From: Thermoplasmatota archaeon
GTDB taxonomy: Archaea > Thermoplasmatota > E2 > JACPAO01 > JAHFTW01
Direction of reading: 5' to 3'
Assembly (NCBI GenBank): GCA_041623215.1
Contig: JBFJXH010000004.1
Span: 1-36,696, forward strand
Length of the DNA stretch: 36,696 nucleotides
In this document: piece after piece, positions 1,062 to 29,792 of the stretch
Layout of the letters: every line of letters begins with the position of its first letter
Numbering within the stretch: the stretch's first letter is position 1
The notes under the pieces: model-generated
What the model was told of the DNA's origin: nothing
What the model saw: only the letters and a program-made list of their open reading frames with translations
Database searches by the model: none
Position numbers and translations under genes: made by a program

Positions 1062-1907
1062 TCACTCCTTCTTGCCGCGCCCAGGTGCCGCGCCCTTGCG
1101 CCTCTTGGCGGCCCCCGTGCCTGCGGCGCCACCTGCACCGTCATCCGACTTGTCGTCCGCTGGCGCTGCACCTTCGTCGTCCCGTTTGTCGCCAAGCGCA
1201 CGCTTGACGTGACCCGCCACTTCGTCCGTGCCCAGCTTGGCAAACGGCGCGCCGGGAGCCACGGTAGCAATCTCAAGCGCATCGGCGTTGAGGTTGCCAT
1301 CTGTGGCGTGATGCAACGCCTTGAGTCCTAGCGCGATTGCGCCTTTGAGGTCAAGGTCGTGAGCGTAATGTTTCTCCAGGAATTCCATCGCTGGCTGGCG
1401 ACCGCTGCCCACGGCACTTGCATGGTATTCAATGAGCGCGCCAGAAGGGTCTGTTTCAAACAGGCGAGGCCCAGAATCGTCAACTCCTGCCATGAGAAGC
1501 GCGGTGCCAAAGGGACGACCGCCGCCAAATTGCGTGTGGACTTGCTTGTAGTCACAGACGCGCTTTACCAGGGTCTCGACCGGGATGGCCTCATCGTACG
1601 TGATGCGGTTCATCTGAGCCTCGACACGGGCCCGGTCCACAAGCGCGCGGGCATCCGCCACTAAACCACTGGTGGCGCAGCCCACATGCTCGTCCAGCGT
1701 GAACACCTTCTCGATGCTGCGGGGAACCACAAGACGCGAATTGACGCGTTTGTCCACGAGGAGCACAACGCCGGCATCGCAGCGAATGCCGAGGGCCGTG
1801 GTGCCGCGCTTGACTGCTTCGCGCGCGTATTCTACTTGGAACAATCGTCCATCGGGCGAAAAAACCGTGATTGCACGGTCGTAGGCCATGTTGCCTTGGG
1901 GTTGCAT
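1062..1907 (-). CDS. psmA: 20S proteasome alpha subunit
   Basis: YDRAITVFSPDGRLFQVEYAREAVKRG, GGGRPFG and LFETDPSG motifs. Probable start ATG 1907 (MQPQG) with GGAG SD. Confidence 0.98.
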   Translation of the reverse strand: MQPQGNMAYDRAITVFSPDGRLFQVEYAREAVKRGTTALGIRCDAGVVLLVDKRVNSRLVVPRSIEKVFTLDEHVGCATSGLVADARALVDRARVEAQMNRITYDEAIPVETLVKRVCDYKQVHTQFGGGRPFGTALLMAGVDDSGPRLFETDPSGALIEYHASAVGSGRQPAMEFLEKHYAHDLDLKGAIALGLKALHHATDGNLNADALEIATVAPGAPFAKLGTDEVAGHVKRALGDKRDDEGAAPADDKSDDGAGGAAGTGAAKRRKGAAPGRGKKE

Positions 1908-2033
1908 AATGTTCTCCACACACTGTGGAAGCGTGCCAACCAGCCGGCCCGAATGTGGTGGACCTGGGGGCGGGCACTACCCCGCCTGGCGGGGGTCACC
2001 TTCCGGTTTCAAGGCGCGCCAGCCAAGCCCTCG

Positions 2034-2040
2034 TTATAAA
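2034..2040 (-). promoter_or_regulatory. Putative TATA box (TTTATAA) for psmA-SBDS-rrp4
   Basis: Strong AT-rich box in a GC-rich divergent intergenic region. It also reads as a TATA box on the plus strand. Confidence 0.6.
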
Positions 2041-2097
2041 GTCGGCCCCGGGGGCAGGCGCCATCTGGCGACCCCTCAAGGTCACGGCAAAGGCACG

Positions 2098-2104
2098 ATA
2101 TATG
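2098..2104 (+). promoter_or_regulatory. Putative TATA box (ATATATG) for polC
   Basis: AT-rich box about 50 nt upstream of the probable TTG start at 2152. Confidence 0.45.
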
Positions 2105-2151
2105 TTGCGCGCCCGGCACCCTCAAACGCCTGGCCCGCGTGGCCTGCCACC

Positions 2152-5100
2152 TTGCCGGAACTGGCTGCCCCCGCGACCGCGAAAGGCCCCGCTGCCAGCC
2201 CGGCTCAGAAAGCCTATTTTGACCTGCTGCTGGGCGATGCAAAACGTTGCATTGCCGTCGCCAAGCAAGCGCGCCGCAAAGGCCTGGACCCGGACCTCGA
2301 TGTCGAGATTCCCTTGGCCGAGGACTTGGCCGCCCGCGTCGAGGCACAAGTGGGCCCCCCAGGTGTGGCCGAGCGCATCCGAGCCGTTACGAAGGAACTT
2401 GGCAACCGCGAATTGGTCAGCCTGCGAGTCGCCAGTGACGTCGTCGCCGACTTGAAGAAGCAGGGCGAGGCCCGGGCCAAGTGCCTCGACAATGCGGTTC
2501 GGACCGGCTTGTCGATTCTTACCGAAGGCGTGTTGGTAGCGCCGCTGGAGGGCATCGCCGAGGTCAAAATTGGCGCCAACAGCGACGGCTCCGACTACGT
2601 GGACTTGTTCTTCGCCGGTCCAATTCGGGCCGCCGGCGGCACGGGGCAAGCCATGAGCGTCCTGTTAGCGGACGTCGTACGCCGCGAACTGGGTATCGGC
2701 ACCTACATCCCGACCGACAGTGAAGTCGAGCGCTACAAAGAGGAGATTCCGGCTTACAAGCAATTGGCCAATCTCCAATACACACCCAGTGGGGCTGAAA
2801 TTGAACTCATCGCACGCAATTGCCCGGTTTGTATCAACGGCGAAGGCACGGAGCGGGAGGAAGTCACGGGCAACCGCGACCTGCCCCGCGTCGAGACCAA
2901 TCAGATTCGGTCGGGCGCGTGCTTGGTCATGGCCGAAGGGCTTGTCCTGAAAGCGCCCAAGTTGATGAAACACGTTGACAAGCTGGGCCTGGAGGGATGG
3001 GAATTTCTGGGCGAATTCATGAAGAAGGGCGCCAAGGACGATGCCGGCGACGGCGTTGCGGCGGACCCAGATGCCCTGCCGGAGATTCCTCCGATTGACA
3101 AGTGCGTCAAGGACATCATCGCCGGGCGGCCTGTCTTCAGCCACCCGAGCCAACGGGGGGGCTTTCGCCTTCGCTATGGCCGCAGCCGGACCGCGGGTCT
3201 AGCAGCCAATGCGTTTAGCCCGGCGACGATGGCTTTGGTGGACGATTTTCTGGCGGTGGGCACGCAACTCAAAATCGAACGGCCTGGCAAGGGGACCTTG
3301 GCGACGCCTTGCGATGAATTGGAGGGCCCAACGGTTCTGACCAAGCGCGGCGATTTGGTGCGCGTCGCGACAATGGCACAGGCGAAAGAGCTGCGCCATG
3401 CCATCGACGCCATCATGGACTTGGGCGAGATCCTGATTCCGTTTGGGGAGTTCGCGGAAAACAACGCTCTGCTGCCTCATGCCTCATGGGTGTGGGAGTG
3501 GTGGGTGCAGCTGCATCAGGACGACACAGGTGATCCGGATGACGTCCACCGACCCGGGACCTTGTCGGGCGAGGAAATGGTGAGCCTGGCAGAATCCACC
3601 AACGTTCCACTCCATCCCGACGGCACTCTGCTCTGGCATGACCTCGAGCCGCTGGAGGTACGCTCCTTGTCGGAGGCAATCGCCAAGGACGGCCTTTGGC
3701 AAGATGGCGGGCTTGTGGTTCCCGCCACCGACGAAGTGCACGCCTCGTTGATGCGGCTTTTGTGCTTGTTCACACGCCACGATGAGCAATTGCGCATCGA
3801 AGAGCCTCTGGCCGTGCCGCTTCTTCGTTGCCTCGGCCTTGACCTGGACGCAGACGGCCATGCCAAGGACGCGGCAGTAGCGCGCGTCATTCGAACACCC
3901 CGCGCCAGCATCCTGGCGGACCCGTGCCAACCAGACCTGGACCGCCACCAACCCACGGTGGACTTAGTGGGGCGCCTGGCAGGCTTCAAGGTCATGCCCC
4001 GCGCACCATGCCGGGTCGGCGGCCGGATGGGGCGCCCCGAAAAAGCCGACGTTCGCAAAATGACGCCGCCGCCGCATGGCCTCTTCCCGATTGGCAAGTC
4101 AGGCGGCAATCAGCGACTGGTGGGCGACGCGGCGGCCAAGGGAATCTTGGACCTCGAATTGGGAGAGCGTCAATGCCAGCAATGCGGCAAGAAGCATTGG
4201 CGCACCGTATGCGATTGCGGCGGCCACACGGTCTATCGCGAACCTCCGCCCAACTCGAACGTTGGTTTTGACCGCCCCACGACGCAAGTTGATGTCAAGG
4301 CCGAAGTGAAACGGGCGCTCGAGGCGCTGGGTCTGCGGCGCCTCCCAGATCCCACCAAGGCCGTGGTTGGCGTCGTCAACCGCGAAAAAGTTCCCGAGAT
4401 TCTCGAGAAATGCATTCTGCGCGCTAAACACGGACTCTGGGTGTTCAAGGACGGGACCGTGCGCTACGACATGACCGACGTCCCCATCACGCATTTTCGC
4501 CCTCGCGAAGTGCGAGCCCCCGTCGAGCGCCTGCGCGAGATTGGCTACACAATCGATGTGGCCGGCAACCCGTTAGAGGACGGCGAACAATTGCTCGAAC
4601 TTCGCGTCCAAGACGTCGTTGTCAGCAACGGTTGTGGCGACTATTTCCTCAAGGTTACCCATTACGTGGACGAGCTCCTAGAGACCGTGTACGGCTTGCC
4701 ACGCTTCTACAATTGTACCACGCGGGAAGACCTCATCGGGCACCAAATGATTGGCCTTGCACCCCACACGAGCGGCGGAGTCCTGTGTCGAATCGTAGGC
4801 TTCACGCGAGCCCAAGTACACTTTGGCCACCCGTATTTCCACGCCGCCAAACGGCGCAACTGCGACGGCGACGAAGACGCTTGCATGATGCTGCTGGAAG
4901 GCCTGCTTGACTTCAGCCGGCACTTTGTGCCGGACCGCCGCGGCGGCCTGATGGATTTGCCATTGGTTCTCACCACGCGCCTCGACCCCAACGAAATCGA
5001 CAAAGAGGCACACAACGTGGACACCTTGCGTCGCTACCCCGTCGCCTTCTACGAGGCGACCCGTAAGCACGCTCACCCCAAGGATGTCGCCGCCATCATG

Positions 5101-5616
5101 GGCCTCGTCGAGCAGCGAGTCGGCACCCCCGAGCAATACGAAGGATTCGGCTTCACGCACGATACCCACGACATCTCGGAAGGCCCGGCCGTATCCGCCT
5201 ACAAGACGTTGGGCTCCATGATGGACAAGATGACGGCGCAAATGGAACTGGCCAGGAAAATCGACGCCGTGGACGAACGGGACGTCGGCGCCAAGGTCAT
5301 CGGCACTCACTTCCTGCCCGACCTAATGGGCAACCTGAAGGCGTTTAGCAAGCAGAAGGTCCGGTGCCCACTCTGCAATGCCAAGTACCGCCGCATGCCC
5401 CTCAAGGGCGTGTGCCTCCAATGCAGCAACCCCAAGTTGACCCTCACCGTCCACGAGGGTTCGGTGCGAAAATACTTGCAAATCAGCAAGACCGTCGCGG
5501 ACCGCTACAACATCGACCCGTACACCAAGCAACGTATTCTGTTACTGGAGGAATCGGTGGAATCGGTGTTCAACAATGACAAGGTCAAGAAGGCCAAATT
5601 GACCGACTTCATGTAA
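2152..5616 (+). CDS. polC: DNA polymerase D large subunit DP2, no intein
   Basis: ARRKGLDP..VEIPLAEDLAARVE, FAGPIRAAGGT, GFRLRYGRSRT, catalytic HAAKRRNCDGDED, two Zn-ribbon regions and a PIP-like C-terminus (KLTDFM). The track start at 1888 overlaps psmA; TTG 2152 is my best estimate. Confidence 0.97.
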   Translation: MPELAAPATAKGPAASPAQKAYFDLLLGDAKRCIAVAKQARRKGLDPDLDVEIPLAEDLAARVEAQVGPPGVAERIRAVTKELGNRELVSLRVASDVVADLKKQGEARAKCLDNAVRTGLSILTEGVLVAPLEGIAEVKIGANSDGSDYVDLFFAGPIRAAGGTGQAMSVLLADVVRRELGIGTYIPTDSEVERYKEEIPAYKQLANLQYTPSGAEIELIARNCPVCINGEGTEREEVTGNRDLPRVETNQIRSGACLVMAEGLVLKAPKLMKHVDKLGLEGWEFLGEFMKKGAKDDAGDGVAADPDALPEIPPIDKCVKDIIAGRPVFSHPSQRGGFRLRYGRSRTAGLAANAFSPATMALVDDFLAVGTQLKIERPGKGTLATPCDELEGPTVLTKRGDLVRVATMAQAKELRHAIDAIMDLGEILIPFGEFAENNALLPHASWVWEWWVQLHQDDTGDPDDVHRPGTLSGEEMVSLAESTNVPLHPDGTLLWHDLEPLEVRSLSEAIAKDGLWQDGGLVVPATDEVHASLMRLLCLFTRHDEQLRIEEPLAVPLLRCLGLDLDADGHAKDAAVARVIRTPRASILADPCQPDLDRHQPTVDLVGRLAGFKVMPRAPCRVGGRMGRPEKADVRKMTPPPHGLFPIGKSGGNQRLVGDAAAKGILDLELGERQCQQCGKKHWRTVCDCGGHTVYREPPPNSNVGFDRPTTQVDVKAEVKRALEALGLRRLPDPTKAVVGVVNREKVPEILEKCILRAKHGLWVFKDGTVRYDMTDVPITHFRPREVRAPVERLREIGYTIDVAGNPLEDGEQLLELRVQDVVVSNGCGDYFLKVTHYVDELLETVYGLPRFYNCTTREDLIGHQMIGLAPHTSGGVLCRIVGFTRAQVHFGHPYFHAAKRRNCDGDEDACMMLLEGLLDFSRHFVPDRRGGLMDLPLVLTTRLDPNEIDKEAHNVDTLRRYPVAFYEATRKHAHPKDVAAIMGLVEQRVGTPEQYEGFGFTHDTHDISEGPAVSAYKTLGSMMDKMTAQMELARKIDAVDERDVGAKVIGTHFLPDLMGNLKAFSKQKVRCPLCNAKYRRMPLKGVCLQCSNPKLTLTVHEGSVRKYLQISKTVADRYNIDPYTKQRILLLEESVESVFNNDKVKKAKLTDFM

Positions 5617-25444: not shown

Positions 25445-26077
25445 CTATTTGTTCTTGAGAACGGGCAGCCCGTTGGGAGTGCGAACCACCTGCTTGCCCT
25501 TGGGCATGACGTAGACAGCGTTGCCCGTCACGTCCTTCTGGGCCTTCTTGCTGAAGAAGAAGCGGTTGCCGTTCTGGTAAAGCTTGTAGCCATACTTGGT
25601 AATCTGGGCTCGGCGTGCCTTGGGCTTGGTGTCCTTGGCCGCGTTGACGGTCGGCTTGGTATCATTGGCCTGAACGGCGGCCTTCTTCGCGGGCGGCTGG
25701 TAACCCTTGTGCAGGCCACAGTAGTCGCTGCGCGCGCGCGCTTGGCGGCTGCATTGGGCGCCGGCGGCCGTGATGGCACCGCATTGCTTGCCGTTCGTGG
25801 CTGCCTTGGCAGCGGTCCGCTTGGGTGCCGCTGTGGCTGCGCCGGCTGCAACCTTCTTGGTGCCTGCTGCTGCGGCCCGCTGGTGGATGCCACAAAGATT
25901 GCTGTTGTCGCCCGCACTGCGGCTGCAGCGGGCGCCGCTGGCCGTCATCGCACTGCACTTGGCCGCCGCGGCGGCGACGGGCGGTGCGACGGGCTTGGCC
26001 CCGGTTGCGGAGGCCTTGGCCGGCTTTGGCTTGGCAGGTGTCGTCTTCTTGCGTCGGAACCAGTCAAGGAGGCCCAT
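25445..26077 (-). CDS. Basic Lys/Ala-rich protein with two C-x9-C-x10-C-x2-H fingers (DUF5763/WRC-like spacing)
   Basis: MGLLDWFRRKK start at 26077; fingers at 25883-25957 and 25709-25783; compact basic C-terminal domain. Confidence 0.8.
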   Translation of the reverse strand: MGLLDWFRRKKTTPAKPKPAKASATGAKPVAPPVAAAAAKCSAMTASGARCSRSAGDNSNLCGIHQRAAAAGTKKVAAGAATAAPKRTAAKAATNGKQCGAITAAGAQCSRQARARSDYCGLHKGYQPPAKKAAVQANDTKPTVNAAKDTKPKARRAQITKYGYKLYQNGNRFFFSKKAQKDVTGNAVYVMPKGKQVVRTPNGLPVLKNK

Positions 26078-26138
26078 GACGGCGCATCCCAAGTCCTGGG
26101 TCTAAGCCCTTGCCATCAGGTTAGGCGTGCAAGATGGC

Positions 26139-26234
26139 CTAATCTAGTAGGTCGGCAGCTGTGAACTGCACGTGGAAGCCAGCCAGCGGATGGCAGCGGC
26201 CAAGGAGGCGGAGAGTCAGATTTTGAAGCGTCAT
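26139..26234 (-). CDS. Putative 31-aa micro-protein
   Basis: MTLQNLTLRLLGRCHPLAGFHVQFTAADLLD. Its ATG follows GAGGTG, which overlaps the stop codon of the upstream small ORF. Confidence 0.45.
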   Translation of the reverse strand: MTLQNLTLRLLGRCHPLAGFHVQFTAADLLD

Positions 26235-26242
26235 GTCACACC

Positions 26243-26413
26243 TCAGGACAGGGCGGCCATCCAGCCAAGGGCGGCCAGCAACCCAGTCGCAACGAGGGCG
26301 ACGAGGGGGACGGTGCGGGGCGGGACATCGTGGCCGGGGCGCGGCTGGACCAACAGGACCAGCAGGACCAAGGCGGAGAGCGCGGTTATGCCGATGATGA
26401 AGCTTGTAAACAT
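26243..26413 (-). CDS. Putative 56-aa two-TM micro-protein
   Basis: Not in the ORF track: MFTSFIIGITALSALVLLVLLVQPRPGHDVPPRTVPLVALVATGLLAALGWMAALS. Confidence 0.6.
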   Translation of the reverse strand: MFTSFIIGITALSALVLLVLLVQPRPGHDVPPRTVPLVALVATGLLAALGWMAALS

Positions 26414-26430
26414 TGGAATCAATCCAGGGT

Positions 26431-26558
26431 GGGCGGCCCAGCCGGTGGCCCTTGCGGGCCGGTAGGTGGTCGGTGGTGGTCGATGCGCTTGCGCGCCTCA
26501 AACGGCCAGGCCGCCCGGTTGTGGTTGAAAGTGCGTCGGTGTGTCCGTCACACTTCAA
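26431..26558 (-). ncRNA. Putative structured leader RNA (5' hairpin plus three-way junction with two GCAA tetraloops)
   Basis: Stems paired by hand. The G-U pairs and GNRA loops exist only on the minus strand. The element begins about 23 nt downstream of a TATA box. Confidence 0.5.
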
Positions 26559-26580
26559 TGGTGAATTGCGTTGCCGAGCC

Positions 26581-26614
26581 ATATATACTTAGCTTCTGTA
26601 TAGTTACGTAACTA
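26581..26614. promoter_or_regulatory. TATA box (ATATATA, 26581-26587) and perfect palindrome TAGTTACGTAACTA (26601-26614)
   Basis: Exact 14-bp inverted repeat in an AT-rich stretch between divergent units. Confidence 0.7.
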
Positions 26615-26700
26615 CGAGGCTATTACAGACTGTGGAGGGGGCAGCTTTCAGGAGCAACCAACAAGCTACAAATAACACAATTTGGCACGTAGTTGTTTCA

Positions 26701-27033
26701 ATGAGTCCCAAGATGCAAGCGCGTCTTGCCCAATTACCGCCTTCAGCCCAGGCCGTGGCCCAGCACCTAGCCACGGGCGAACCCATGACGGGCAAGGAAC
26801 TGCGCGAGGCAACCGGCTTGCCCCGGCGGACCATTTACAGCGCCCTTTGTCGCCTCCGAGAGCTGGGCTGGCTGAAAGAGAGAGCTAGCCTGCAGGACAC
26901 GAGGCAGCGCTACCTGTGGCTGGAGATGGACGAGACTCCCTCGCCGACCATGGCCCCGCCCGCACAGCAGCGCAGCCAACCCCCGTTTAGCGCTTCCACG
27001 CGACGCCATCTTGCCGGCGCCGGCGCTTCCTAG
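26701..27033 (+). CDS. Small winged-helix transcriptional regulator (MarR/TrmB-like, euryarchaeal LPPSA...D[AT]RQ type)
   Basis: LPPSAQAVAQHL..MTGKELREATGLPRRTIYSALCRLRELGWL..SLQDTRQRY; ATG 26701. Confidence 0.82.
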   Translation: MSPKMQARLAQLPPSAQAVAQHLATGEPMTGKELREATGLPRRTIYSALCRLRELGWLKERASLQDTRQRYLWLEMDETPSPTMAPPAQQRSQPPFSASTRRHLAGAGAS

Positions 27034-27100: not shown

Positions 27101-28279
27101 CTAGCCAATGACCATGGCTTCTTGGCGGAAGTCGCCTTCCTCAAACCGCTCGAGCCGGAACGGGCGCAAATCCATCTCCGGGCGCTGGCCGGCAATCAAC
27201 TGGGCACTGAGGCGACCCACCATCGGACTAATCATCATGCCATGACCACTGAAGCCATTGGCCTGCACCAAATTTTGGGGCCCATCGCGCGCCACCCCCA
27301 GGATGGGCTTGGCATCGGGTGTCTTGTCATAGCTGCCGGCCCATTGCCGCAGCACACGAACCGGCCCAAGGTGCGGTAACAAGCGCACAGTCTCCTTGGC
27401 AAAGGTTCGAAGGAAATCGAGGCTGCTGGACCAATCAAGCGATTCCCCGTGCGAAGTCGCTAGACCCCCGACCAATTCCCCGCGCATGTCTTGGTTCACA
27501 TAGTACCCCGACGAAAGATCCACCAACATCGGATTAAGGAACGGCTTCAGGGGTTCGGAGACAAGAATCTCGTGTCGCTCCGGCTTATTGGGCAGCGCGA
27601 CCCCCGCCCAACCAGCCACTTGCTTGGACCAAGCGCCAACAGCGTTCACAACCCAGTCGCAGCCAATGGTTCCTCGGTCGGTCTCGACGTGCGTGATACG
27701 GCTCGCGCCATCGGCCATCCGGACCCCGGTGGCCTTGGTGAACGTGGCCACCTCAACGCCGTGTTTGGTTGCGCCATCCTTGTAACCCCACACAATGGGC
27801 CAGGGGAACAGCACTGCGTCGTCGGGATTGTAGGTCGCCCCAACACAGCCGTCCGTCTGAAGGCCCGGGACGATGCGCTTGGCATCATCGAGGTCAATGA
27901 CGCGCGTTCGCACGCCGTGACGATTTTGGAACACGGCCGCATCCCGCAATTGCCCCAGCTGCGCCTCCGACCGTGTTAGGAAAAGGTAGCCTCCTTGCCG
28001 AAGGAACAAGTTGTGCCCCGTGTCGCCCGCAAACCGCTTGAAGGCGGCGATGGACCGATGGGCAAGAACAATGTTCTCCTCGGTAGTCCATTGGGCACGG
28101 ATTCCTCCGCCATTTCGGCCGGTGGCCCCCTTGACGAGCGAATCTCGGTCGAGGACCAGTACGTCCGTAATCCCAAGCTTTGCCAGATGGTAAGCGACCG
28201 ACAAACCAATGGCACCGCCACCTAGGATCACCACATGGTAGTGGGCCTTGCGTGGCCGGGCAGCCTGTTGCGCAAGCAT
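27101..28279 (-). CDS. FAD-dependent oxidoreductase, sarcosine oxidase beta / dye-linked L-proline dehydrogenase beta-like
   Basis: VVILGGGAIGLSVAYHL, GATGRNGGGIR, RQWAGSYDKTPD..PILG, GFSGHGMMISP. TGATG coupling with the upstream gene. Confidence 0.92.
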   Translation of the reverse strand: MLAQQAARPRKAHYHVVILGGGAIGLSVAYHLAKLGITDVLVLDRDSLVKGATGRNGGGIRAQWTTEENIVLAHRSIAAFKRFAGDTGHNLFLRQGGYLFLTRSEAQLGQLRDAAVFQNRHGVRTRVIDLDDAKRIVPGLQTDGCVGATYNPDDAVLFPWPIVWGYKDGATKHGVEVATFTKATGVRMADGASRITHVETDRGTIGCDWVVNAVGAWSKQVAGWAGVALPNKPERHEILVSEPLKPFLNPMLVDLSSGYYVNQDMRGELVGGLATSHGESLDWSSSLDFLRTFAKETVRLLPHLGPVRVLRQWAGSYDKTPDAKPILGVARDGPQNLVQANGFSGHGMMISPMVGRLSAQLIAGQRPEMDLRPFRLERFEEGDFRQEAMVIG

Positions 28280-28560
28280 CAGCAACTCCCCTCGTCGTCG
28301 GCCGCCAACAGATCAAACGGAATGGGCCGCACCGGGGGCCGAAACGTCATGACATCAATGTCGGCTGGGTCGATGGAGGCGCGGTCCGCGAGGAGCCGGG
28401 TACAGGTCGCAACACAGCTCTTGCCTTGGCAGGGCCCCGTGCCGACACCAAGGAAGCGCTTCAAATCCTCAAAGCAGTCGTAACCTTCCTCGATTGCCCC
28501 CTCAACGTCATGGAGCGTCAAATCTTCGCAGCGGCAAACCATGGTTTTGGGCGCCGTCAT
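28279..28560 (-). CDS. BFD-like [2Fe-2S] subunit (SoxA C-terminal-like)
   Basis: VCRCEDLT...LKRFLGVGTGPCQGKSC...FRPPVRPI. Confidence 0.9.
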   Translation of the reverse strand: MTAPKTMVCRCEDLTLHDVEGAIEEGYDCFEDLKRFLGVGTGPCQGKSCVATCTRLLADRASIDPADIDVMTFRPPVRPIPFDLLAADDEGSC

Positions 28561-29792
28561 GAGGCAATGCCCCCGGCCGGCGTAAAGGCAGCGTGCAGCC
28601 CACGGACCGTGGTCTGATGACCATCCACCAACAGCGGCATCAGGCCACCTTCCGGATCGTCAAAGCTGAGTTGAGCGCCCGCCTGTTGCAGTAGCTCGAT
28701 GCGTGGCTGCCCGACACCACCGCACACGATGGTGTCGCACGGGACGCGCTTGCCATCGACCGTGGCCGCCTCTACGGCGTTGCCACCATGTGCCCTCGTC
28801 ACCATTCCCGATGCCACGATGGTGCCGCCGTGGCGTTCAACGACGTGGACAAACGCCTCGGGCGCCTCGCCGTGAACCACAATGGCCCGGCCAGGAACAA
28901 CGCCATGCTCCCCCACAAGCCGCCAAGCGCCATCCAGACTGAGCACGCCGGGCAGGTCATTGTTGACAAACAGGGGCCATGCGTCATGACGCCCCGTCGC
29001 CACCGTCACCCGGCTCGCGTGGACCTCGACAAGGTCCGCTCCGTGGGCGACGCCAACAACGTCGCCATAGTGGCCGAAGGCCAAAGCATCCAGCCATAAC
29101 TCCACGTGTGGACTGGCCTGGACAGTTGCCAGGTCGGCATCGGTTTCCGGCTCAGTCCGCCAGCGTGCCGTGCCCCCTGGGGCCATTCGTTCGTCGATGA
29201 CGATGACCGAACGGCCCTTGGCCGCAGCCTCGGCCGCCCTTGCGAGGCCATTCGATCCGCTGCCAATCACCAGTTCGTCCACCGCGACACTCCGACGCTG
29301 CCCGCGCGGACTTTTGTCCAACACCTCGGTGGGTGCCCGACCCGATCCCGACATGAACCGCACGGACTTCATGAAGGCCGCATTGAGAAGTCTGGGCCGG
29401 GTGAAGGCACCGTGCGGGTCGAAGCCGCGGCGATACACCTTGTCCACGATGGCAAGGGCATCACGCTTGGCGCCCCCGAGCGTATTCTGGGACGTTGCCT
29501 GGGCCCCACTGTCAGCGAGCGTCATGCAAGCAGGCACGGAAGGAACGCCATCCACGTCAATGAAGCACCCCGCACATCCGCCCGAATTGCAATACAGGCC
29601 GCGTGGCCGATGATACTTGAAGGAACGCGAGAGCACGCGGTGTCCAGCCCGGTGCAGGGCGCTGGCGTAGGTGTCCCCGGGACGAATTGGGACCTCCTGG
29701 CCGTCGAAGTGGAAGGAGCCAGCTGCTGACAACGGGGGCGGCAGGGGCGCGCCGGTTGAAACCTTCGCCGCGCTACGCCCAGCCGCGCTCAC
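28557..29792 (-). CDS. Sarcosine oxidase/proline dehydrogenase alpha-like subunit (Fer2_4 plus Rossmann fold)
   Basis: GDTYASAL...SRSFKYHRPRGLYC..G.C..C..VDG...AC, VIGSGSNGL and F.NNDLPGV. Confidence 0.88.
   Translation of the reverse strand: MSAAGRSAAKVSTGAPLPPPLSAAGSFHFDGQEVPIRPGDTYASALHRAGHRVLSRSFKYHRPRGLYCNSGGCAGCFIDVDGVPSVPACMTLADSGAQATSQNTLGGAKRDALAIVDKVYRRGFDPHGAFTRPRLLNAAFMKSVRFMSGSGRAPTEVLDKSPRGQRRSVAVDELVIGSGSNGLARAAEAAAKGRSVIVIDERMAPGGTARWRTEPETDADLATVQASPHVELWLDALAFGHYGDVVGVAHGADLVEVHASRVTVATGRHDAWPLFVNNDLPGVLSLDGAWRLVGEHGVVPGRAIVVHGEAPEAFVHVVERHGGTIVASGMVTRAHGGNAVEAATVDGKRVPCDTIVCGGVGQPRIELLQQAGAQLSFDDPEGGLMPLLVDGHQTTVRGLHAAFTPAGGIAS

Follow-up and report, generated by a model that had tools for sequence, protein, structure and literature searches.

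A structured RNA and two microprotein genes form a conserved, previously unannotated cassette in one family of Thermoplasmatota

Introduction

In the genome of a Thermoplasmatota archaeon a promoter with a perfect palindrome is followed by a long leader and two micro-ORFs, with a small wHTH gene facing the other way, and the arrangement raises the question of what the leader and the peptides do and which protein controls them. A first-pass annotation of the locus proposed that the wHTH protein binds the palindrome and controls a micro-protein operon that is also regulated post-transcriptionally, and likened the whole to type I toxin or small membrane-peptide loci. Here the locus is analysed in its own genome (labelled G000, 1.94 Mb) and in related genomes; the window, that is the whole stretch of DNA considered, comprises 36,696 nt of the forward strand of contig JBFJXH010000004.1 (GCA_041623215.1). 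The reading that we prefer, to which as a whole we give roughly even chances, is a two-microprotein operon with a 143-nt structured RNA that likely acts alone, an AbrB/PhoU-like regulator encoded elsewhere in the genome being the likely activator. Structured regulatory and dual-function RNAs of archaea are known from very few species.

Results

Layout of the locus

The features of the cassette and its flanks are listed in Table 1. The palindrome, the TATA box, ORF1, ORF2, the GAGGTG motif over the ORF1 stop and the divergent wHTH gene all lie where the first-pass annotation had described them, and the leader, put at about 145 nt, measures 143 nt from G26556, a start site inferred from TATA spacing and the 5' hairpin, to the ATG. 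The accompanying remark that many neighbouring genes look leaderless can be carried only as far as the two flanking genes examined, both of which have TATA-like elements ~25-32 nt before the ATG. A 147-aa ORF (26582-26139) was rejected as a gene because its start falls inside the TATA box. The downstream Lys/Ala-rich gene is probably a separate unit, as indicated by a TATA-like element of its own at 26100-26106. The basic protein that it encodes is found family-wide (L021-L036), retaining an amphipathic N-terminus (M.L..LFRRK) and the Lys/Ala tail; its CCCH motifs are lost in one genus, and tandem paralogs follow in G007 and G015. Elsewhere in the window are the gene for the DNA polymerase D large subunit (1888-5616) and, beside the wHTH gene, a sarcosine-oxidase-like three-gene cluster (27101-29792), an ordinary context that is not conserved next to the cassette.

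Table 1. Features of the cassette and flanking genes, by position in the window
Feature	Position	Strand	Remarks
Candidate operator palindrome TAGTTACGTAACTA	26601..26614	none	core TACGTA at 26605-26610
Operator consensus ~AAnyTACGTArnT	starts 25 nt upstream of TATA		likely activator position
Degenerate second box	26624..26629	-	19 bp upstream of the first; tandem box
BRE-like GCTAAG and TATA box TATATAT	26581..26593	-	column conservation across 20 loci
TATATAT itself	26587-26581	-	
P1 hairpin	26528..26556	-	begins at inferred transcription start G26556
P2 5' strand (long closing helix)	26503..26516	-	
P3 hairpin inside junction	26482..26499	-	varies among relatives
Unpaired C/A-rich loop, ACCACCN repeats	26463..26481	-	conserved
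P4 hairpin	26447..26460	-	varies among relatives
P2 3' strand	26431..26444	-	
ORF1, 56-aa microprotein, two hydrophobic helices	26243..26413	-	
GAGGTG ribosome-binding site overlapping ORF1 stop	26239..26244	-	likely translational coupling
ORF2, 31-aa peptide	26139..26234	-	C-terminal family motif PL.G.RF.FG.DDLLD
Small wHTH gene, 110 aa	26701..27033	+	divergent; TrmB/MarR-like, below Pfam cut-offs
Lys/Ala-rich protein with CCCH (DUF5763-like) motifs	25445..26077	-	downstream, usual neighbour

The cassette is confined to one family

The cassette proves to be a genuine unit, not annotated before, that is conserved within one Thermoplasmatota family: the RNA part, the micro-ORFs or both are present in 25 of the 32 genomes of the family, its own included, as a single copy at a fixed chromosomal site in a core-gene context. 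G005 and G014 have the syntenic site without the cassette, and in five genomes (65-86% complete) the locus was not found. Six genomes from two other families of the order gave no match to ORF1, ORF2 or the RNA model. The locus carries a box in 23 of the 32 family genomes, TACGTA in 22 and TACATG in G006, and G018 and G023 have the RNA part without it. Two metagenome contigs add one complete copy and one ORF-less copy (L106). Among the sequencing runs listed for the locus there was no RNA run; DNA contigs from one study also cover it, with one synonymous change in ORF1, and are not counted as independent support. Conservation in relatives, on which the first-pass annotation had staked its proposal, thus extends to the peptides and not to the perfect 14-mer palindrome, of which only the TACGTA core with A/T flanks is kept.

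Two micro-ORFs under purifying selection

ORF1 occurs in 19 genomes, comprising 18 of the 38 genomes of the order that were matched by a profile built from 17 of these sequences, and G009, which the profile missed and which was located through the box. The profile matches are divided between 17 of the 31 family relatives and the genome itself, with none in the six genomes of other families. The predicted product has two uncharged hydrophobic stretches flanking a short P/R/D loop, and a second, tandem two-helix ORF is present in four genomes. ORF2 is complete in 17 genomes (15 of 38 by profile, plus G008 and G009 read by eye), is cut by the contig end in G006 and persists as a remnant in G047. 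Its conserved part is the C-terminal motif given in Table 1; the peptide ends in DxLLD, and no other G000 protein has an ORF2-like tail. Values of dN/dS ranged from 0.21 to 0.80 for ORF1, below 1 in all eight pairs, and from 0.08 to 0.41 for ORF2, below 1 in all six computable pairs, a seventh being saturated. By this measure ORF1 and ORF2 are genes under purifying selection, and the notion of a micro-protein operon is borne out, as both frames are conserved family-wide with dN/dS below 1.

The start codons of ORF2 (ATG, GTG or TTG) overlap or abut the ORF1 stop, an arrangement that suggests translational coupling. ORF1 may form a helical hairpin in the membrane and modulate a partner there, and ORF2, made through such coupling, may be an amphipathic peptide whose acidic C-terminal tail would dock on a protein. 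Pfam, NCBIfam and PADLOC held no family for either peptide, the best Pfam match of ORF1 having an E of 0.13. The ORF1 profile retrieved 33 matches from a large protein collection, all unnamed or hypothetical except one with a truncated automatic label. Top scores in the ESM Atlas, 0.88 and 0.78, belonged to unnamed clusters and are leads only, and prediction of an ORF1+ORF2 complex gave no verdict, at a score of 0.00.

A conserved RNA structure in the leader, with a likely function of its own

The 143-nt leader folds at z = -5.5, none of 200 shuffles being equally stable, into the P1 hairpin followed by the long P2 helix, which closes a junction containing two variable hairpins and an unpaired C/A loop. 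In an alignment of nine related sequences, from which the structure was itself predicted, two-sided changes are seen in 12 of 20 pairs and 91% of cells are paired, compared with 35-42% when the partners are slid; on four of five measures the shuffle test gave 0 of 500. A model made from those nine sequences scores held-out copies at up to 98 bits, with weaker scores for the g11 genus and for ORF-less copies. Judged from this covariation, the leader is a conserved RNA structure. No Rfam family corresponds to it (best 15.9 bits against a gathering score of 45), and the loci of two relatives had no Rfam match at E up to 1. A scan for sigma-70 promoters and terminators, which uses a bacterial model inapplicable to archaea, found nothing, and two loop-pattern matches in viral contigs lacked the structure and were taken as chance.

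The junction and loop are found without ORF1 and ORF2 in G024, G022, G041, G018 and G023 and on metagenome contig L106; absence of the ORFs was checked at the locus and by genome-wide profile, and four of the five genomes are 89-91% complete. G008 retains both ORFs with P1 only, the junction core being deleted and ORF1 intact. Because the RNA core and the ORFs have been lost separately in different relatives, the RNA part likely acts on its own, as a dual-function RNA. It could be argued that the structure is instead a cis-acting leader, riboswitch-like or a stability element, that serves the micro-ORFs or the downstream basic protein, the ORF-less copies being relics or serving the next gene. 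Indeed, in most loci the ORF transcript would begin with the structure, the copy in G046 is decayed, and a Lys/Ala-rich gene follows in most ORF-less loci. The start of ORF1, however, is outside the conserved P1/P2 helices and follows a variable spacer, leader length among relatives ranging from 56 to 277 nt; the ORF-less copies retain full helices with altered sequence; G024 has no visible same-strand gene after the RNA, and elsewhere the next gene has a TATA-like element of its own; and the absence of an Rfam match also speaks against a leader of this kind, which we regard as quite improbable. Of the structured leader as first described, the structure is therefore upheld, whereas a cis switch for the ORFs is not supported, as the leader survives without them.

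Type I toxin loci of the tisB/istR type combine an operator, a long structured leader and a small hydrophobic ORF. The cassette shares all three, and ORF1 could on that likeness be a membrane toxin silenced by its leader. It should be emphasized, however, that ORF1 has two uncharged helices, not a single charged amphipathic one, and that its start codon is unpaired or outside the conserved helices and so not sequestered. No conserved opposite-strand promoter or gene was noticed in the alignments; PADLOC gave no match; and the single copy, fixed site and core-gene context, together with the survival of ORF1 without the leader core in G008 and of the RNA without the ORF elsewhere, also argue against it. 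A type I toxin locus is thus unlikely, and a leader-silenced ORF1 toxin has a very slender chance of being the correct reading.

The ACCACCN loop and its possible partners

The loop is strongly conserved and carries one to five ACCAC/ACCAA units. It is unpaired (probability at least 0.67) in 22 of the 24 loci that were anchored by script, out of 27 tried, and in G000 itself. The family loop CAUCACACCACCGACC has a complement laid out as a GGUGG site plus AUG, which raises the possibility that the loop is a base-pairing seed, and that the transcript works in trans as a C-rich sRNA in the manner of FsrA and RoxS from Bacillus, pairing with G-rich ribosome-binding sites while also encoding small proteins. 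The unpaired state and strong conservation of the loop fit such a role, and FsrA and RoxS offer a precedent for seeds in single-stranded C-rich stretches (PMC8464778). Among 7273 crude start windows of G000, however, there was no standout duplex at a real start, and a complement-plus-ATG search of 32 genomes showed no recurring gene start among the matches listed (102 more are unlisted), most of those listed looking like antisense coding sequence; variation in repeat number likewise counts against a seed. Short seeds would escape searches of this kind, and the target search was made without rRNA, which was not found in the G000 assembly. We consider the seed reading somewhat unlikely.

An HhH gene supplied the strongest duplex, antisense to its 3' region; an ACCACC(T)ACCACC repeat there, confined to the G000 clade, precedes a hairpin. 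Among 20 loose matches in G000, ACCACC-type repeats occupy four non-coding sites, namely the cassette, the HhH 3' region, C55 and C168. Since repeat number varies and the repeat is reused elsewhere, a protein-binding site is favoured: protein docking is, in our estimate, the somewhat likelier role of the loop, base-pairing with other RNAs a possible but lesser one, and control in cis a doubtful one. The P2 helix would keep the 1-5 ACCACCN-type repeats of the loop exposed as a single strand on which a partner, most likely an RNA-binding protein, could dock. A bolder proposal, which we hold to be rather unlikely, is that the cassette represents a new class of archaeal non-coding RNA, in which a three-way junction presents tunable ACCACCN repeats as a protein sponge and which, with the two microproteins, is the main output of a dedicated AbrB/PhoU-like sensor. 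If true, this would be a Csr/Rsm-like logic not described in archaea, and the repeats before hairpins at the three other non-coding sites would mark further RNA targets of the protein.

Two of those sites, G000 C55:2030-2150 (L130 ~1130-1250) and C168 ~2930-3080 on the minus strand (L218), are intergenic hairpin-rich elements sharing GGATTAC(T)ACCACCTACCAC, and are possibly further small RNAs; the C55 element had no Rfam match and, in five relatives, no conservation beyond 23-41-nt pieces. The HhH gene (G000 C33:10550-11218, minus strand; L131:1054-1719; L163-L189) encodes an HhH-repeat, Lys/Ala-tailed protein. In most of 26 relatives its leader has a conserved short 5' hairpin-like element, TGTGG..ACACAA..CCACA, which resembles the cassette P1. 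The G000 gene also has a strong TACGTA box upstream of it, and the ACCACC repeat and hairpin after its stop. The gene was rejected as a member of the regulon described below, as only the G000 copy (1/26) has the box.

A candidate operator at the cassette promoter

The palindrome TAGTTACGTAACTA is unique in the 1.94-Mb genome at up to two mismatches, so that the genome-wide scan for similar sites suggested earlier yielded no second match. A perfect 14-mer alone is weak evidence, because the genome holds 128 perfect 14-bp palindromes, only three of them as AT-rich. The TACGTA core, however, has a fixed place, ~51 nt upstream of the inferred start site. In 20 aligned promoters it starts 25 nt before TATA, between an A-rich and a T-rich flank; a second, weaker copy 19 bp upstream is a full TACGTA or TATGTA in several relatives. 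Since these 20 loci were chosen for having the TACGTA core together with a TATA-like word, conservation of the core is partly circular. The genome contains 63 copies of TACGTA. A scan for the box combined with TATA yielded 17 matches, 11 of them at cassettes, with no other recurring site. The claim of a real operator is strengthened by this conserved box at fixed TATA spacing, and TACGTA is the probable candidate for the operator of the cassette promoter. As the box sits just upstream of BRE, CopR's activating position in Pyrococcus, a regulator bound to the tandem boxes (19-bp spacing) would activate the promoter.

Perfect AAGTTACGTAACTT and AACTTACGTAAGTT boxes also occur in G001 on two short contigs whose ORFs resemble those of mobile elements (C286 and C298; L125, L129), so that the operator might also be used or carried by such an element. 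In ORF-less loci (L022, L030, L033, L106) a conserved CCAACAGGAGGAGT element lies between the wHTH gene and the box; it is found upstream of the G047 HhH gene too (L177).

The box binder is probably not the neighbouring wHTH

Control of the operon by the neighbouring wHTH protein through binding to the palindrome, as first proposed, would fit the divergent adjacency of its gene in 14 of the 25 cassette loci, and a paralog could stand in elsewhere, as all 32 genomes have wHTH paralogs. The gene, however, is not adjacent in 10 boxed genomes (one further locus is unresolved), where the best matches examined are mostly HxlR-linked paralogs (71-column tree, poorly resolved); it is still in place in all four boxless genomes; and the box keeps a constant distance from the micro-ORF TATA but not from the wHTH start. 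Because of its non-adjacency in the former genomes and its retention in the latter, the wHTH protein is a poorer candidate than the unlinked AbrB/PhoU-like regulator, which tracks the box, and is probably not the binder; we give control by the wHTH little chance. At paralog loci of several relatives (L034, L040, L043-L046) inverted AATGGTATA...TATACCATT repeats lie in the short spacer that separates the wHTH paralog from the HxlR-type gene opposite it.

An unlinked AbrB/PhoU-like regulator tracks the box

A strict-pattern search placed the box before the gene for an AbrB/PhoU-like regulator in two relatives. TACGTA lies within ~35 nt of the start at 17 of 25 regulator loci, compared with 1 of 26 control upstream regions, and often has a second copy 19-20 bp away. 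The other eight promoters have no exact TACGTA, including those of four genomes that retain the cassette box, and G006 has TACATG at both the cassette and the regulator promoter. Among 2344 crude ORFs of G000 no plausible real start other than that of the regulator has TACGTA 12-45 nt upstream, which argues that the motif is not a common TATA variant; at the many regulator promoters where the box occupies the TATA position it may in part take over the TATA function. A search for the regulator located it in 27 of the 32 family genomes, in some as contig-edge fragments, and not in the boxless G005, G014, G018 and G023 (89-94% complete) or the boxed G008 (83% complete). It should be stressed that the four boxless genomes form two separate pairs on the HhH-protein tree and amount to only two independent box losses. 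Distant homologs in four genomes of other families had no TACGTA within 260 nt upstream. Three genomes, drawn from two other Thermoplasmatota families (L223-L225), carry such homologs in tandem pairs, two of which lie next to a tRNA-like gene end.

In G000 the regulator gene occupies C61:7194-8318. The predicted model of the regulator (pLDDT 87) has a C-terminal PhoU fold. Its best structure match has Z 19.4, rmsd 3.4 and 206 aligned residues, the top six matches are PhoU proteins (Z 16-19) and Foldseek gave E 2.5e-4; Pfam PhoU was detected, below cut-off, in 4 of 22 members. The N-terminus has no Pfam AbrB/MazE match of its own and aligns with the genome's canonical MazE/AbrB-PhoU paralog (95% probability, E 3.4e-8). 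We infer from these comparisons a PhoU-like protein whose DNA binding is predicted through the paralog; PhoU-like and AbrB-fold proteins are counted among archaeal DNA binders (PMC6316755, PMC5222340). This regulator is the predicted binder of the TACGTA box and likely switches the cassette on. At its own promoter it would bind over the TATA/start, repressing itself and a co-transcribed metallo-beta-lactamase-fold hydrolase, whose gene it precedes in most loci. The regulon is probably small and not the phosphate regulon, since the box scan found no other recurring site, the regulator retains only one PhoU-like acidic motif, and in G000 the pair formed by the canonical MazE/AbrB-PhoU gene and the PitA-like transporter opposite it has no TACGTA before it. 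Free phosphate is a doubtful signal.

Discussion

The cassette is limited to one uncultured family. Its RNA motif and both of its microprotein families are new, and its box is a candidate operator for a PhoU-like regulator of non-canonical type. It offers covariation support and natural module-deletion variants, with RNA lacking ORFs, ORFs lacking the RNA core and RNA lacking the operator, and it opens two questions to in vitro tests: which sites are bound by divergent PhoU paralogs of archaea, and whether sponge RNAs that present repeats are in use in archaea. In the literature searched there was no description of the RNA element, the box or the peptides; subscription papers fall mostly outside that literature, and motif tables in supplements could hold one.

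Dual-function RNAs include SgrS/SgrT, SR1/SR1P and RNAIII, with M. mazei sRNA154 as an archaeal example, and the cassette resembles them in joining a conserved structured RNA part and small-ORF coding capacity in one transcript, whose regulation here is predicted (PMC12612679, PMC11456600). In contrast to them, it has two coupled ORFs downstream of the RNA module, the modules are lost separately, and its RNA has no Rfam likeness and, in the searches made, no standout or recurring base-pairing target. The likeness to FsrA and RoxS lies in a single-stranded C-rich stretch, a small RNA under a regulator, as predicted here, and small proteins in the regulon, which for FsrA of Bacillus subtilis are FbpA-C (PMC8464778). 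The cassette loop, however, sits within a three-way junction and consists of ACCACCN repeats in varying number; no ribosome-binding-site target was found for it, and the peptides are on the same predicted transcript, one of them a predicted membrane hairpin.

With respect to control, Pyrococcus CopR activates from a palindromic box just upstream of BRE and represses its own promoter (PMC7830388). A palindromic box in that position at the target and repression of its own promoter would be shared by the regulator proposed here, which differs in protein family and motif and whose activation of the cassette is deduced from position only. In H. salinarum a PhoU-type transcription factor acts through promoter boxes, and Haloferax has an RNA, sRNA132, described as non-coding and found in Haloferax only (PMC6560208). 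The cassette is similar in its predicted PhoU-type factor with promoter boxes and its archaeal RNA of roughly 140 nt; its regulator, however, is a divergent paralog. The canonical MazE/AbrB-PhoU gene of G000 also departs from the cassette, as a different palindrome, TCTATATAGA, with no TACGTA seen, lies between it and the divergent PitA-like transporter gene (C9; L134:920-2000) and is a candidate for the true pho-box.
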